DNA from: Crassostrea angulata
Lineage: Eukaryota
Direction: 5' to 3'
Length of the DNA stretch: 64,000 nucleotides
NCBI RefSeq assembly: GCF_025612915.1
Contig: NC_069114.1
Coordinates: 49,578,639 to 49,642,638 of the forward strand
The position numbers and the translations under genes are program-made. How positions within the stretch are numbered: the first letter of the stretch is position 1; every line of letters begins with the position of its first letter. Positions 27,031 to 63,395 of this stretch are shown here, piece after piece. Under the pieces are notes generated by a model. That model saw only the letters and a list, made by a program, of their open reading frames with translations, made no database searches and was not told the DNA's origin.

Positions 27031-27147
27031 TCACCGTCTGAATTGTCCCGTGGGTCGCATGGATTCAACACGACCCTGGAGGTCATCGATCCGGACGTCC
27101 TTCAGGTGAATCAGGTGTTCCAGCCGATGAATTTTTGCTTGTAAAAT
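27031..27147 (-). CDS. SPEF1: SPEF1-like A terminal exon (ILQAKIHRLEHLIHLKDVRIDDLQGRVESMRPTGQFRR*)
   Basis: ctgtaccag acceptor; coiled-coil matches human SPEF1 VLQMKVRRLEHLLQLKNVRIEDL; stop TGA at 27033-27031. Confidence 0.8.
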   Translation of the reverse strand: MLQAKIHRLEHLIHLKDVRIDDLQGRVESMRPTGQFRR

Positions 27148-27639
27148 CTGTACCAGATAAAACAAATGAATAATTAAATGAATGCTTTCATTTGATATAG
27201 ATATCAAATACCTGCCTATTTTACTTATATACTTCTATTTCTTCCCTTTTTTGGTCATCAATTTCTACCATTATAAAGCATTTTTTTTTTACCGTATTGA
27301 TATGAAATCCTTCAAGTTGGCATCTCTTATTCATTTTTCCCATCTTTTTGAATAATTTTTAAAATTATTAAGCCCATTTTCCTAATTCTGAATCCCCTAC
27401 CAATATATAATTTAGCTCCTTTTTCTAATTTTATAGACCCCAATCAATGCCTTTATTTAGCTCCTTTCCCTGATTTTATAGACCCTTGAAGACCTGTACT
27501 AATACCTTTACTGAGCCCTCCCTACACATTATAGACGCCTTCCAATACCTTTACTTAGCCCTTTCTCTGATTTGTAGACTCCTATCAATGCCTTTACTAA
27601 GCCCATTCCTCTATCTAACACACCTTTACCAATACCTCA

Positions 27640-28811
27640 AGTACCACTCCCTTTTATGAGTCCTTCCCTCTACCTTATACCCATGCCATTTCCTTTCAAA
27701 AGCCCCTTCATCTACCTTATACCCCTACCACTCCCCTTCATGAGCCTCTCCCTCTACCTTATACCCCTTCCACTCCCATTCATGAGCCTCTCCCTCTACC
27801 TTATACCCCTACCACTCCCCTTCATGAGCCTCTCCCTCTAAATTATACCCCTTCCACTCCTCTTCATGAGCCCCTCCCTCTACCTTATACCCCTACCACT
27901 CCCCTTCATGAGCCTCTCCCTCTACCTTATACCCCTACCACTCCCCTTCATGAGCCTCTCCCTCTACCTTATACCCCTACCACTCCCCTTCATGAGCCTC
28001 TCCCTCTAAATTATACCCCTTCCACTCCCCTTCATGAGCCCCTCCCTCTACCTTATACCCCTACAACTCCCCTTCATGAGCCTCTCTCTCTAAATTATAC
28101 CCTTACAACTCCCCTTCATGAGCCCCTCCCTCTAACTTATACCCTTACCACTTCCTTCATGAACCACTCCCTCTACCGTTTACCTCTACCACTTACCTTT
28201 ATGAGCATTAACCCCTCCTTTTAACTGGTAAGTCCTACCACACCCATTCAAGAGCCCCACCCTCTACCTTATACCCCTACCATTCCCATAAGGAGCCCTT
28301 CCCCCTACCTTATACCCCTACCACACCCCTTCACGAGCCCCTCCCCCCTACCTTATATCCCTACCACTCCCATTCATGAGCCCCTCCCTCTACCTTATAA
28401 CCCTACCATTCCCATAAGGAGCCCTTCCCCCTACCTTATACCCCTACCACACCCCTTCACGAGCCCCTTCCCCCTACCTTATACCCCTACCACACCCTTT
28501 CACGAGCCCCTCCCCCCTACCTTATACCCCTACCACACCCCTTCATGAGCCCCTCCCCCCACCTTATACCCCTACCACCCCATTCATGAGCCCTACCCCC
28601 ACCTTATACCCCTACCACTCCCCTTCATGAGCCCTACCCCCACCTTATACCCCTACCACCCCCATTCATGAGCCCTACCCCCACCTTATACCCCTACCAC
28701 ACCCTTTCATGAGCCCCTCCCCCCCACCTTATACCCCTACCACCCCCATTCATGAGCCCCTCCCCCTACCTTATACCCCTACCACACCCCTTCAGGAGCC
28801 CCTCCCCCTAC
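27640..28811. repeat. 42-bp minisatellite, ~28 copies (ccttatacccctaccactccccttcatgagcc(c)ctccctcta), in last intron of SPEF1-like A, abutting exon 5 donor
   Basis: period 42 read directly; minus-strand unit contains ATAAGgtagggggagg resembling exon 5 donor ATAAAG|gtagggggagg. Confidence 0.85.
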
Positions 28812-28938
28812 CTTTATGGTCTCATCCTTAGCAAGACACTCTTGGACTTTCTCCTCGAACACAAGGCGGGGTACATGGTCGGCCTCGGAGACATTGCGTA
28901 AAATCTTCTGCCTGGGTTGGTTTGTGTAGTACTCGTGC
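28812..28938 (-). CDS. SPEF1: SPEF1-like A exon 5 (HEYYTNQPRQKILRNVSEADHVPRLVFEEKVQECLAKDETIK)
   Basis: cag acceptor, AAG|gtaggggg donor; paralogous to B exon 5 (..GDHVSRLLFEEKVQESLSKDETIK). Confidence 0.75.
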
Positions 28939-59658: not shown

Positions 59659-59788
59659 CCTGATTGTTTCGTCCTTGGCCATACATTCCATCTCTTTCTC
59701 CTCTAGGTAGCTACGTGGGACATTGTCGGAGGTAGGGTAAATGTAGATCGCTGGGTCAAAGTATCCCTTACCCTCAAAATGGTAGGAG
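59659..59788 (-). CDS. SPEF1: SPEF1-like C penultimate exon (SYHFEGKGYFDPAIYIYPTSDNVPRSYLEEKEMECMAKDETIR), 130 nt
   Basis: ttgcag acceptor, AGG|gtaatt donor; same size/phase as exon 5 of paralog B; ..EEKxxExxAKDETI motif. Confidence 0.65.
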
Positions 59789-62700
59789 CTGCAACAGAGA
59801 CAAATTGTCATGGTAACACAGAGTCATCATTCTGTCAAATGTGGCCTGTTGCCATGGATGGCATCAGAGAAACTTTTATCACATTCAGTATACATATAGA
59901 TGCTTGGTGTCTGAGAAGTTTCAAATCTAAGAGATCTCATTCAGCTTTTGTAATCGAGGCTCAAAACTTTTTTATTGCGACATCATAGTATTACATACAT
60001 GAAAACCACTTTAATAGTAAGGACTTTTTTGCTTACCGGTAATTACTTTATCATTACAGCTGATCAACGTCTGACAACTATCACAATTATTATATACACA
60101 CACATCTGTAGTTCTTATTGTTAATTGTTCACTTCCACTAAACAATATCATAACAGAGATTCAGAGTGAAAAGCAAGCATGTAATAATCTGTTAAACAAA
60201 GTTACCCTTAAATTACTCATCATCTAAGAAATACTCTGGTTACATGTGTGAAGGCTTTAAGCAGCTATGATAAGTGATCAAAAGTAGTCTCCCCTAAATT
60301 CCCTGTCGCAGGTGAAGCTCCGATTACATACAAGGGAGATAAGCCGTTAAGTGATCTGCGATTTTGATCCGACTACACGTGATCTTGTTCTAGAACTAAG
60401 AGATTGGAAGAAAGTGCTGGCCTACATACCCCATATCATTGGATCCACCCTTCGTTTTAACACCAATACTTCAAAACACGAGGTAAATGTTTCATAATAA
60501 ATTAACATAATACAAAGTAATGAGCAATGAGTATCTTAATATAGGAATTATTCCTTATTGCTCAAGTACATGTAAAAAGTACACTGTACAATGTTAAGTA
60601 CAACGGATCATTCAATTATCATAAAATAATCATAACTTATTTATTTTTGTTATTATGTACTTATTTTAAGTGCAAAGTTGACGTACTTTTTATTGCAGTT
60701 GACATGTTAATGCAGCACACAGCATGTTTTATAGTTTGCATATTAACTGGTAAGCTAAGCTTTCAACCGTATTTATTGGCATAACAACTACATGTACTTT
60801 AGAGTTATTCAAAAGCATCAGTGTTTGGACTACTTTTAATGGTGTTCAGTCATTATACATTATAAATGTATAGTTTTAGATATTACTACTCATCATTTAT
60901 AAAGAGCTGCTGTCCTCTTTACTCTAGGCACCTATAATTTAGAAACTAATCCATGAGTTGCTTTGCCTGAACATTGCTGTCCATCCAAACTCTTCTTCAG
61001 CATCATTGACAGATTGTTTATTGGTAGAGAAGAGGGTACAAACATTTCAAACCAAAGTTTGTGAAAATTGCATGTTGCCCTAACCCCTGTCAGTCTGTTA
61101 TTCCTTGCCTACAATAATGACCTTGACATGTAATAATCTGACCTTGAACCAAACAATGTATCAATTAATCGTAAGGGCGCTGGTAATACAAAGTAAGAAC
61201 AGACATTGTCTGGTACGACACATGTATTGCATTCCTTTATCTATTACATCTAGAAGTCATTCCATTACCTCTAATTCATGCAATTTAGACTACATGTTCT
61301 ATAGATATATATCATATCTTTATTCATGCATTTAAATTTACTACTTTGACAAACTTTTAAGTTCTGTAAGGTCAGGGGCATGCAGATTATATTACACACC
61401 ACACACAACACTTACATCACAGCATGGTAACCATGGAAACACTCAAAATCCCCCTATCCTAAAATACACCATTTCATCCCTCAAAAATCTCTCAATTTTA
61501 CTGTTTTTAAACTTGATTGATTTATTTATAAACATCCACCTTTGGTGTTAACAATCCATAGTCATATTGTTGAGAAACAAACCTAAATTTTATACCTTGG
61601 TCGTCCCCAGAAATCGTATATCCTGGGGAGATGTGATTCTAGTTTTATTTCTGCAATACTGAAACAATACACATTGGTGTTACTGTTAATCAAATCACAT
61701 CATATGCCAGTGAAGGCAGATAACAACGCCACATAAACATAAAATGTAAAACCCAGGACTGTCACCTCAGTAATTCTGGCGTGTATTCAGCATCAAACAG
61801 ATAACTGAAAAAGAAGCCCTACAGTGATTGAGGAGGGGTGCCCAAGCCTTATAAAGATTGTAAAGGGAATTATAGTATAAAATCTATAACACTGCATTGT
61901 ATCAATAATCAGCTAAATGTCTTTATAAATCAGTACAGCATACACTTTAGAAAGTGAGCTAGTGCATCGTTAGCTGGGGGTTATGATATAACTACGGTGT
62001 TAAGACCTAACTATTTAAATACTCAACTTTTACCGTAAACTACATTTGAAATAATAACTTCAAATCATTAGAAACATTATATTTAAAATACATAAACAAG
62101 GAACCAAATCTACTCATCTCAATGACTCTTACTTTATATGGTAATTATTATACACTAATTAACTCTAAGGGTTAAATTATGCTAACCCTATAACACAGAG
62201 AGTACTGTCCTTCTCAAATAATAATTGCTAAATCATCCTTTTCACCCATTTTGTTATATGAACATTCAAGTATAAAATTCATTTTATCATCTGCTTTACA
62301 AGTGAACTTCTTATTTATAATGAACTTTCTTTAAAAGAAGAAATCAATGGGAAAATTTTTATTTGATTTTGTAAAATATCTCTCCTCTTTCATAAATTTC
62401 AAATTTCTACTCTACATTTAAATGAATGCAGACAAAATATTTGTTCATATAAGACAGGTACATACTGAAAAGCTCCCAGTTATGAAAAGAATCATAGTCA
62501 TATACACATATTAGTTACGTAGGTTATAGATGTGCCAACAGAAAGCAAAGGTGGAGGGGTAACACTAAATATCGTGTGAGCAAATGTTTACTGAGAGCTA
62601 ATTTACTGATCAAGTCATTACCTAAGAAGTTGTTTGTTCTTTTGCCTACAGATAATATTCAGAGGGTACAGGTATAGATGTAAGAACAAAGGTACAGAAT

Positions 62701-63292
62701 AAAAATTAAACAATACTGACATGCGACCAGTTCTCGCCAAGTACCATTTCTCGCCAGTGCATCAATAATCATATTTCTTCATTTGTAGTTTTTTGTGTGA
62801 ACAAAATGACGTAACAATGCACAGGTGAGAAATGGTTCTCTGCAAGAACTGGTCACATGCTAGTATAGTTTCATCAAAGTTCAAGATTCAGTTCAAGATT
62901 GAGATCAAAATCCAACTGGACAATAATTTTCAGAACATAGATGTTTCTACAGGGGGTGAAGCAAAAAAACAAGCATGTAAACTTTCTTCTTTGTCTTTAA
63001 AATGTTTAAGCCAATGAATAAGCTCTATTTGTATCAGATCAAAAAAAACATGTCATTTTATAATTTTTCTATAAAGATCAAGATTATTCTGGTTGAAGCA
63101 ATTTGCAGCTGCCAAAGTTGGTTGGGTTCATATCTTTAATTATCTAATAATGTCTTTCCTGTGAATGATATGATCAGCACAGATAAACTGTAAACCTGCA
63201 TGAGTGTACTGATAAAGTCCTACATGTACATGTTGCCCGATACTGTGCTTATGCCATTGTACTGTCCCGGGCAGACTACGCTGCATACTTAC

Positions 63293-63395
63293 GATCTGTC
63301 AGGGTGATTGTGAGGGATTTCTCCTTTTCCCAGTTTCCGTGGAGATGAAAGTTTGCCTGGAGATGACCTTCCAGTTTTTACTGGAACTAATGCCT
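63293..63395 (-). CDS. SPEF1: SPEF1-like paralog C, linker exon (..ALVPVKTGRSSPGKLSSPRKLGKGEIPHNHPDR..); upstream exons lie beyond window end
   Basis: tttctttcag acceptor, TC|gtaagt donor; only one open frame; S/P/G/K-rich like exon 4 of paralogs A/B. Confidence 0.45.

Follow-up and report, generated by a model that had tools for sequence, protein, structure and literature searches.

SPEF1 is required for building and stabilising the central pair of motile cilia, and bivalves rely heavily on several kinds of such cilia, in the gill, on the velum and in sperm. The CH domain of SPEF1 binds the microtubule seam and stabilises the central-pair microtubules (bioRxiv 10.1101/2024.12.02.626492); R31 is the microtubule-binding arginine of the mouse protein (Zheng et al. 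2019, as cited in bioRxiv 10.1101/2024.12.02.626492). The coiled coil of SPEF1 forms a parallel dimer and is essential for function (bioRxiv 10.1101/2025.07.31.667833), and spef1 serves as a marker of ciliated cells in Pacific oyster embryos (PMC12551290). A literature search returned no paper on molluscan SPEF1 paralogs or on alternative SPEF1 exons. The stretch analysed here, referred to as the window, comprises 64,000 nucleotides of Crassostrea angulata (contig NC_069114.1, positions 49,578,639 to 49,642,638); it is AT-rich eukaryotic DNA with short exons, the top protein matches of which are oyster SPEF1. It is very likely that this region represents a cluster of SPEF1/CLAMP genes that is conserved in oysters, consisting of an inverted pair, A and B, and an older gene, C, and displaying rich alternative splicing.

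The re-derived exon models reproduce exactly the coordinates given for the three genes by the initial annotation: the coding sequence of gene A runs from 38625 down to 27031 on the minus strand and that of gene B from 39149 to 45472 on the plus strand, both complete in the window, while gene C is represented by its 3' half only (63395 down to 56932, minus strand). The three genes adjoin one another within 37 kb. As had been proposed, A and B are genuine SPEF1 paralogs that point away from each other: both combine a CH_2 domain with a coiled coil, and both are 100% identical to RefSeq proteins. The model of A with exon 2b equals the C. angulata RefSeq SPEF1-like protein P0002 (isoform X5) at 253/253 residues, and the model of B with exon 2b and cassette 2 equals RefSeq SPEF1 P0025 (isoform X3) at 276/276; the Magallana gigas isoforms differ from the models by 4-5 residues. 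In the RefSeq nomenclature of C. angulata and M. gigas, “sperm flagellar protein 1-like” thus denotes gene A and “sperm flagellar protein 1” gene B. Pfam CH_2 (PF06294; cutoff 27 bits) is matched by A with an expectation value (E) of 1e-35 (122 bits) and by B with 2e-34 (118 bits), and the SPEF1 CH domain of PDB 2ee7 is matched by both with E 1e-38. The microtubule-binding arginine (mouse R31) is retained in A and B, both of which read PLSRPKKNIARDFSDG (ARDF). The coiled-coil motif KxxRLEHLxxLKDxRxxDL, previously noted in all three genes, is present in A, in B and, in three tandem terminal exons, in C. The CH domain had been assigned to all three genes as well; this holds for A and B, but is unverified for C within the window, where a profile hidden Markov model (HMM) detects no CH sequence for it.

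The initial annotation had voiced the concern that the paralogs might be assembly duplications. That an artefact of this kind, arising from haplotigs or from collapsed or duplicated contigs, produced the A/B pair or the cluster as a whole has nothing in its favour beyond the general possibility in mollusc assemblies, and it can for practical purposes be dismissed: A and B share 63% protein identity and 72-75% exon DNA identity, their introns are beyond alignment, each has distinct transcripts, and an equal head-to-head layout with a 526-bp ATG-to-ATG spacer is found in an independent assembly, that of Ostrea edulis (locus L009). Moreover, the orthologs of A and those of B in Crassostrea, Ostrea and Saccostrea form separate clades, each with 200/200 bootstrap replicates, in a distance tree built on 144 columns from which the alternatively spliced parts were excluded. 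Since the A and B clades each span three genera, the A/B duplication predates the Crassostrea/Ostrea/Saccostrea split. The joint A+B clade, recovered in 114/200 replicates, is sister to the single Pinctada gene; with this moderate support, the duplication probably followed the split from pearl oysters.

The interval between the two genes (38626-39148) is indeed 523 bp long, as originally described; this is the ATG-to-ATG distance, which includes both 5' untranslated regions (UTRs) and two mirrored proximal promoters. The 5' ends of transcript contigs lie at 38756 (A) and 39038 (B), leaving a gap of at most 281 bp, and A and B form a divergent gene pair, being located on opposite strands with starts less than 1 kb apart as judged by these contig ends. 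Alignment of the C. angulata and O. edulis spacers reveals two near-invariant blocks amid diverged AT-rich sequence. A core motif occurs once on the A side (38745-38757, minus strand; GGGAAATTCGTTG), where it is conserved in O. edulis and related to an element of Pinctada, and once on the B side (38997-39009, plus strand; GGGAATTTCGTTG) as the inverted partner of the A-side copy. The GGGAAWTTCGTTG core has two matches in the 64 kb, both in the spacer and inverted relative to each other; the expected number is 0.16, and none of 100 shuffles reaches two. A second mirrored pair of promoter or 5' UTR elements lies outside the core motifs, with a TATCACTAAATACA box on the A side (38688-38723, minus strand) that forms the inverted repeat I2 with its partner on the B side (39028-39063, plus strand). 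Both mirrored pairs are also present in O. edulis.

When oriented by gene, the A and B promoters of both oysters can be aligned with the promoter of the single A/B-type gene of Pinctada. Their common order relative to the ATG is a ACTTCCGG ETS-like box, a TGGGAnnnCGTTG(C/A)(G/C)A core and a TTTTGTGTATTTAGTGATAA-like (TGTATTTAGTGATA) box. In four promoters, namely those of A in both oysters, of B in O. edulis and of the Pinctada gene, the ACTTCCGG box precedes the GGGAAWTTCGTTG core by ~20-30 bp; on the A side of the window it reads ACTTCCGA at ~38775-38785, in O. edulis B it is reduced to TTCCGG, and on the B side of the C. angulata spacer it is degenerate. As the mirrored elements are shared with the Pinctada promoter, the spacer consists of two mirrored copies of one ancestral unidirectional promoter, and the mirrored copies provide direct evidence that the inverted duplication carried the promoter along. 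The inverted duplication of A and B suggested at the outset is thus borne out by mirrored motif pairs, in C. angulata as in O. edulis, that are homologous to a single Pinctada promoter.

The bidirectional promoter that had been postulated together with the duplication fares less well. The short distance between the transcript 5' ends (at most 281 bp) agrees with a single shared promoter, in which one set of elements drives both A and B, and so do the ETS-like CCGGAAGT boxes; ETS-like boxes are typical of mammalian bidirectional promoters. Every conserved element is, however, doubled and mirrored, at a distance from its own ATG and in an order as in the single-copy Pinctada promoter, and the ~240 bp that separate the two core motifs are AT-rich and show no conservation between the oyster genera. 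A shared bidirectional promoter is therefore an unlikely description of the spacer, which is better described as two mirrored copies of a unidirectional one. As such, it offers a clean example of a head-to-head gene pair made by inverted duplication.

The search of 38626-39148 for a canonical RFX X-box (GTNNCC N2 GGNAAC-type palindrome), which had been recommended as a check, yielded zero matches at up to one mismatch. Window-wide, 11 X-box-like matches compare with 6.65 +/- 2.83 expected, which is not above chance; near-perfect palindromes are GTTGCCATGGCAGC (17477-17490, in the 5' part of a Xan_ur_permease region) and GTTGCCAAGGTAAT (24923-24936). The conserved core of the promoters resembles an X-box only loosely (GTTGCGAC... 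in oyster B, GTTGCGACAACAAC in Pinctada). Forkhead-like TGTTT strings are present in the spacer, but since the spacer is AT-rich and the one string in a conserved block is disrupted in O. edulis, they are not taken as FOXJ1 sites.

The exon chains of A and B are backed by public RNA transcript contigs, with GT-AG introns and canonical splice sites throughout, and each gene has its own transcripts, extending from at least 38756 to at least 26080 for A and from 39038 or before to at least 45932 for B. In A (minus strand), exon 1 (38484-38756; ATG at 38625, 5' UTR of at least 131 nt, GT donor, contig L002) encodes the start of the CH domain including PLSRPKKNIARDF; exon 3 (34582-34796) encodes the end of the CH domain and a basic linker, and exon 4 (33324-33372) the SPGRHKKGTSPTRAGG linker; the coiled-coil region begins in exon 6 (28812-28938) and the coiled coil continues in the terminal exon (26080-27147; stop at 27031-27033, 3' UTR to at least 26080, by alignment of L002). 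The first 37 nt of L002 do not match the genome upstream of 38756, where no acceptor is present, and are treated as an assembly chimera or a strain difference. In B (plus strand), exon 1 (39038-39284; ATG at 39149, 5' UTR of at least 111 nt) is defined by contigs L003-L005, and exons 3 (42184-42401), 4 (42733-42790) and 6 (44992-45121) as well as the terminal exon (45353-45932; stop at 45470-45472, 3' UTR to at least 45932) are likewise defined by transcript contigs. A minisatellite of 28 copies of 42 nt fills the last intron of A (27642-28814), which accounts for the strong negative GC skew at 26-30 kb, and a 166-nt unit is repeated five times in another A intron (30665-31530).

A feature absent from the initial annotation is the tandem duplication of the second coding exon, which A and B have in common. 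Each of the four copies measures 112 nt: A exon 2a (37336-37447, minus strand), which encodes the CH core, is AG/GT flanked and is used by L002 and P0001; A exon 2b (35959-36070, minus strand), AG/GT flanked as well, is used by the RefSeq isoform P0002; B exon 2a (39949-40060, plus strand) is AG/GT flanked, and the 2a type is found in P0031 and in one O. edulis B-type isoform; B exon 2b (40852-40963, plus strand), likewise AG/GT flanked, is used by L003-L005 and P0025. Both versions are therefore used in database proteins or transcripts. Inclusion of both copies or of neither shifts the frame and leads to a stop after 48-91 amino acids; because 112 is not a multiple of 3, the mutual exclusivity of 2a and 2b is enforced by the reading frame. 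Exactly one exon 2 copy is present in 120/120 homologs, and two copies in 0/120. The choice swaps 38 core residues of the CH domain.

The exon 2 proteins are more alike between the genes (a-a 27/38, b-b 24/38 identical residues) than 2a and 2b are within a gene (22/38 and 21/38), which places the exon duplication before the A/B gene duplication. Both copies are kept in both genes of O. edulis, in unchanged order, and alternative exon 2 versions within a gene also occur in C. virginica, O. edulis, Saccostrea, Mytilus, Mercenaria, Ruditapes, Dreissena and the nemertean Lineus. The variability extends to the disordered linker, where in-frame cassettes, all phase 2 to 2, are backed by database isoforms: a 60-nt cassette in A (32086-32145, minus strand; YFTRLAAENKEVITLDKLSR) is contained in P0003 (model 271/273), and in B, cassette 1 (43077-43136, plus strand; FQGMSHYYPGLYEPSKFSQW) is contained in the M. 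gigas isoform P0029 and cassette 2 (44014-44070, plus strand; NSMPNADYKEVVTLESLAR) in the C. angulata isoform P0025.

Gene C, on the minus strand, appears in the window with exon e4 (63293-63395; 103 nt, phase 1 to 2, EALVPVKTGRSSPGKLSSPRKLGKGEIPHNHPDRS), the first of its exons there, which displays a third-codon-position pattern across three species. The e4 donor (ATC/GTAAGT, phase 2) is fixed by the DRS/SYH junction in P0131 and P0132, and its phase implies that no exon is missing between e4 and the following exon C4 (59659-59788; 130 nt, SYHFEGKGYFDPAIYIYPTSDNVPRSYLEEKEMECMAKDETIR), which has an acceptor conserved in three species. Three candidate microexons fit in between as optional phase 2-to-2 linker cassettes. 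Those at 62622-62645 (24 nt, phase 2 to 2) and 60430-60468 (39 nt, IGVKTKGGSNDMG) are AG/GT flanked and conserved in the other oyster sequence L006; of the 11 substitutions that separate the one at 61766-61804 (39 nt, YLFDAEYTPELL; AG/GT flanked) from L006, 8 affect third codon positions. All three are proposed from conservation with L006 only. Repeats of 35-44 nt occupy part of the C intron adjoining C4 (59146-59546).

C4 is followed by three alternative versions of the coiled coil, each of 44 codons with its own stop and each after a ttgtag acceptor: C5a (57742-57876; conserved in L006), C5b (57300-57434), the type of tail seen in O. edulis XP_048744037.2, and C5c (56307-57066; coding sequence to 56932, 3' UTR to at least 56307), which is used in L001/P0121 and P0130. 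Canonical poly(A) signals follow C5c only (56936, 56910 and 56790). Pinctada (L010, positions 24974-25111 and 25443-25574) likewise has at least two terminal-exon copies, as does L007. Relative to L006 (~77% DNA identity), 627 coding nt of C contain 53.8 synonymous vs 15.2 non-synonymous differences, corresponding to a ratio of non-synonymous to synonymous rates (dN/dS) of 0.057, or 0.015 without C5a; for single exons, dN/dS is 0.19 for C5a and 0.02 for C5b, and C4 has 15 synonymous and 0 non-synonymous differences; purifying selection acts on all three terminal exons. The third species, L007, shows an equal third-position substitution pattern in the C exons, and splicing of C4 to C5c is documented by two transcript contigs (L001 and P0130). 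In view of this purifying selection and of the spliced transcripts, C is a functional gene and no decaying fragment.

The view of the cluster as three local paralogs stands for A and B, which form a family pair, but not for C, which belongs to a separate, ancient molluscan SPEF1 lineage and did not arise with the others in a single local expansion. The adjacency of the three genes, the exon phases and C-terminal motif common to A, B and C, and the exact 9-mer RLEHLLQLK that C shares with mammalian SPEF1 might be taken to indicate one recent local burst of duplication, with C closest to the ancestral and human form. Yet the C-type proteins form a clade with 100/100 bootstrap support that has gastropods inside and all molluscan A/B-type genes outside, and monophyly of A/B with C is found in 1/100 replicates; Pinctada, Lymnaea, Bulinus, Babylonia and Dreissena, which have a single A/B-type gene, also carry a C-type gene. 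Nor does the proposal that the terminal coiled coil of C is the closest to human SPEF1 survive comparison: the match of A to the mammalian coiled-coil fragment PDB 9ijx_A (47.2 bits, E 2e-11) is stronger than that of C (38.7 bits, E 8e-9), and of 29 terminal-exon positions, 17 (A), 16 (B), 14 (C5c), 12 (C5b) and 12 (C5a) are identical to mammalian SPEF1, the B and A exons being identical to each other at 25/29. Against full-length frog SPEF1, A reaches 186 bits, the Pinctada A/B-type protein 172 and the Pinctada C-type protein 169. Although C shares the exact 9-mer with mammals, it is not closest overall, and a common recent origin of all three genes appears very improbable. Because the C-type clade and separate A/B-type genes are found in both bivalves and gastropods, the C lineage is at least as old as their common ancestor.

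Any CH domain of C would be encoded outside the window. The SPEF1 profile HMM, built from 120 homologs, detects every A/B exon with E values of 1e-11 to 1e-26; in 59800-64000, it finds no CH-domain sequence of C in any of the six frames (all E > 30), so that CH exons of C, if present, lie beyond position 64000. Relatives of C were collected by an exhaustive HMMER search, since word-indexed searches with C peptides gave only short genomic or unspliced open reading frames (ORFs) and, among NCBI proteins, none containing the C. angulata C exons. The Pinctada imbricata relative KAK3095814.1 comprises a CH_2 domain, e4, C4 and a C5c-type tail, and C-type relatives containing a CH domain are also found in Dreissena, Babylonia, Plakobranchus, Lymnaea and Bulinus; the C-type exons e1-e3 carry the signatures ...LNGLTRVDMEEYFD... 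and RKVLxKLDxDLSxEV.... In O. edulis, XP_048744037.2 (P0131; “uncharacterized protein LOC125657494 isoform X16”) comprises e4, C4 and a C5b-type tail, and the C tail is 75-97% identical to it per exon.

Oyster C could be a truncated or re-headed derivative that lost its CH domain and consists of linker and coiled coil only, with a new basic N-terminus or an internal promoter; such a product, having no CH domain, would serve for dimerisation or modulation and not as a microtubule binder. Consistent with this, isoform X16 of the O. edulis protein has a CH-less, basic, Ser/Arg/Lys-rich N-terminus of 138 amino acids joined to e4, no oyster database protein links a CH domain to a C-type tail, and no CH exon lies within ~2 kb upstream of e4 in L007. 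Two independent transcript contigs, L001 and P0130, begin inside the intron upstream of C4, through which they are unspliced (60154-59789), and are then correctly spliced from C4 to C5c; either retention of the intron or transcription from an internal start could account for this. An X-box-like palindrome (61427-61440; GTAACCATGGAAAC), the sole perfect match to GTNNCCNNGGNAAC in the window and represented by GTTTCCATGGTAAC in L006, lies ~1.3 kb upstream of the 5' ends of these contigs, in a conserved non-coding block (~61382-61492) of a C intron; the palindrome may be an internal promoter or enhancer.

Against a loss of the CH domain, the isoforms seen in O. edulis amount to one of at least 16, and the Logan contigs are perhaps partly processed pre-mRNA. 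In Pinctada, the intron between e3 and e4 of the C-type gene measures 5.8 kb, so that absence of a CH exon from 2 kb or from the window says little; in contig L008, a C-type CH exon, e3, does precede e4 at a distance of 0.9 kb (SPEF1 profile E 2.4e-12; Pfam CH_2 positions 60-94, E 6e-4); and e4 retains the ancestral phase-1 acceptor, which is compatible with e3. That oyster C is a CH-less derivative of this kind is rather unlikely. Two candidates were discarded: an e3-like match in L007 (E = 5.8) lacks exon shape and is attributed to chance, and a conserved 44-nt block at ~61467-61424, which harbours the X-box-like palindrome, is non-coding, as every frame is interrupted by stops in L006.

Several of these points nevertheless weigh against the interpretation of the region given above: the CH exons of C are outside the window, and no conspecific protein or transcript joins a CH domain to e4; with the CH-less isoform X16 and the two Logan contigs unspliced into the intron upstream of C4, oyster C-type products may partly or wholly be without a CH domain. 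To these are added the 57% bootstrap for A+B monophyly in a distance tree on 144 columns, the reading of gene starts from the ends of transcript contigs instead of from mapped start sites, the no more than degenerate likeness of the promoter motif to an X-box, and the functional partitioning of the variants, which is inferred.

Gene order allows the history of the cluster to be outlined. The comparison of synteny across molluscs, suggested earlier, finds the head-to-head pair also in O. edulis, and in Pinctada the single A/B-type gene has the C-type gene as its upstream neighbour, 8.9 kb away and in equal orientation (tandem). In the window, C and A are co-oriented, and B is inverted between them; a Xan_ur_permease gene is located downstream of A both in the window and in O. 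edulis. In the simplest history, the ancestral state would have been a tandem of a C-type gene followed by a single A/B-type gene, and an inverted duplication of the latter together with its promoter would have placed B head-to-head with A. Judging from the arrangement of the sequences, it is probably A that still has the original place and orientation, and B that was inserted, in inverted form, between its two neighbours.

The alternative exons affect the two parts of the protein that matter for its function: exon 2 choice would vary the seam-binding surface of the CH domain, and the choice among the C terminal exons would vary the dimerisation helix. The cluster presumably supplies ciliated cell types and sperm with SPEF1 variants that differ in microtubule (seam) binding and dimer specificity. 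A more far-reaching scheme is a combinatorial isoform system, in which two versions of the CH exon in each of A and B and three coiled coils in C would give rise to sets of homo- and heterodimers with differing microtubule-lattice preferences and pairing rules, distributed over the cilia of the gill, those of the larval velum and the sperm flagella, and in which CH-less C-type coiled-coil proteins, as natural capping or dominant-negative partners, would tune the bundling of SPEF1 or its condensate formation; it is speculative and, in its full extent, improbable. The alternative CH exon constitutes a natural variant set for the residues that set seam binding, and the alternative coiled-coil exons one for those that set dimer specificity.

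Further features of the window surround the cluster. At the left window edge (~288-5500, plus strand), a channel gene with an Ion_trans domain is represented by its 3' part, and the Xan_ur_permease (SLC23-type) transporter gene, syntenic with O. edulis, occupies ~13000-18000 (minus strand). Between B and C, a retrotransposon of the type without long terminal repeats (LINE; 50516-53387, minus strand) has one ORF for a 751-aa reverse transcriptase (RVT_1, E 9e-41) and another for an endonuclease (Exo_endo_phos_2). It is flanked by two similar copies bordered by G-runs (46813-46968 and 55388-55552, plus strand; ORF text ...ILI(R/L)GGGGGGGG...KNYLP(N/K)FFFSK...), which probably belong to a dispersed repeat family. 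A poly-C run of 111 nt is found at 55716-55826.

Overall, the cluster is a well-behaved expansion of a known family, in which the splicing detail is modestly interesting and nothing is overturned. A and B are already annotated in RefSeq, and the C-type gene is annotated in O. edulis yet unrecognised there as a SPEF1 relative; the annotation can be corrected in that C-type genes, labelled “uncharacterized” in O. edulis, represent a second molluscan SPEF1 subfamily. The result is an incremental one of comparative genomics, unsurprising, and useful for cilia and mollusc genomics.

Vertebrate SPEF1/CLAMP (human Q9Y4P9; PDB 2ee7 and 9ijx) has the same architecture of CH_2 domain, disordered basic linker and RLEHLxxLKDxRIxDL coiled coil; the arginine of its SRDF motif (mouse R31, ...SRDFSDG) is also conserved in oyster A and B, and frog SPEF1 and the product of oyster gene A are 43% identical over their full length. 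Vertebrates have one SPEF1 gene, whereas the oyster has two A/B-type genes and one C-type gene in the cluster; the mutually exclusive pair of CH exons, the linker cassettes and the three C terminal exons are features of the oyster genes, none being described for vertebrate SPEF1 in the literature searched. A precedent for two SPEF1 paralogs is Tetrahymena, where SPEF1A and SPEF1B are of unequal abundance and the CH domain binds the seam of the central-pair microtubules (bioRxiv 10.1101/2024.12.02.626492). The Tetrahymena pair is, however, an independent ciliate duplication, for which neither a head-to-head layout nor alternative exons are reported. More distant CH_2/DUF1042 proteins, SPATA4 and Chlamydomonas FAP178, have the CH_2 fold in common with the oyster proteins (E 1e-12 and 9e-12, respectively), but differ from A, B and C in being without the SPEF1-type C-terminal coiled coil that unites the three oyster genes.

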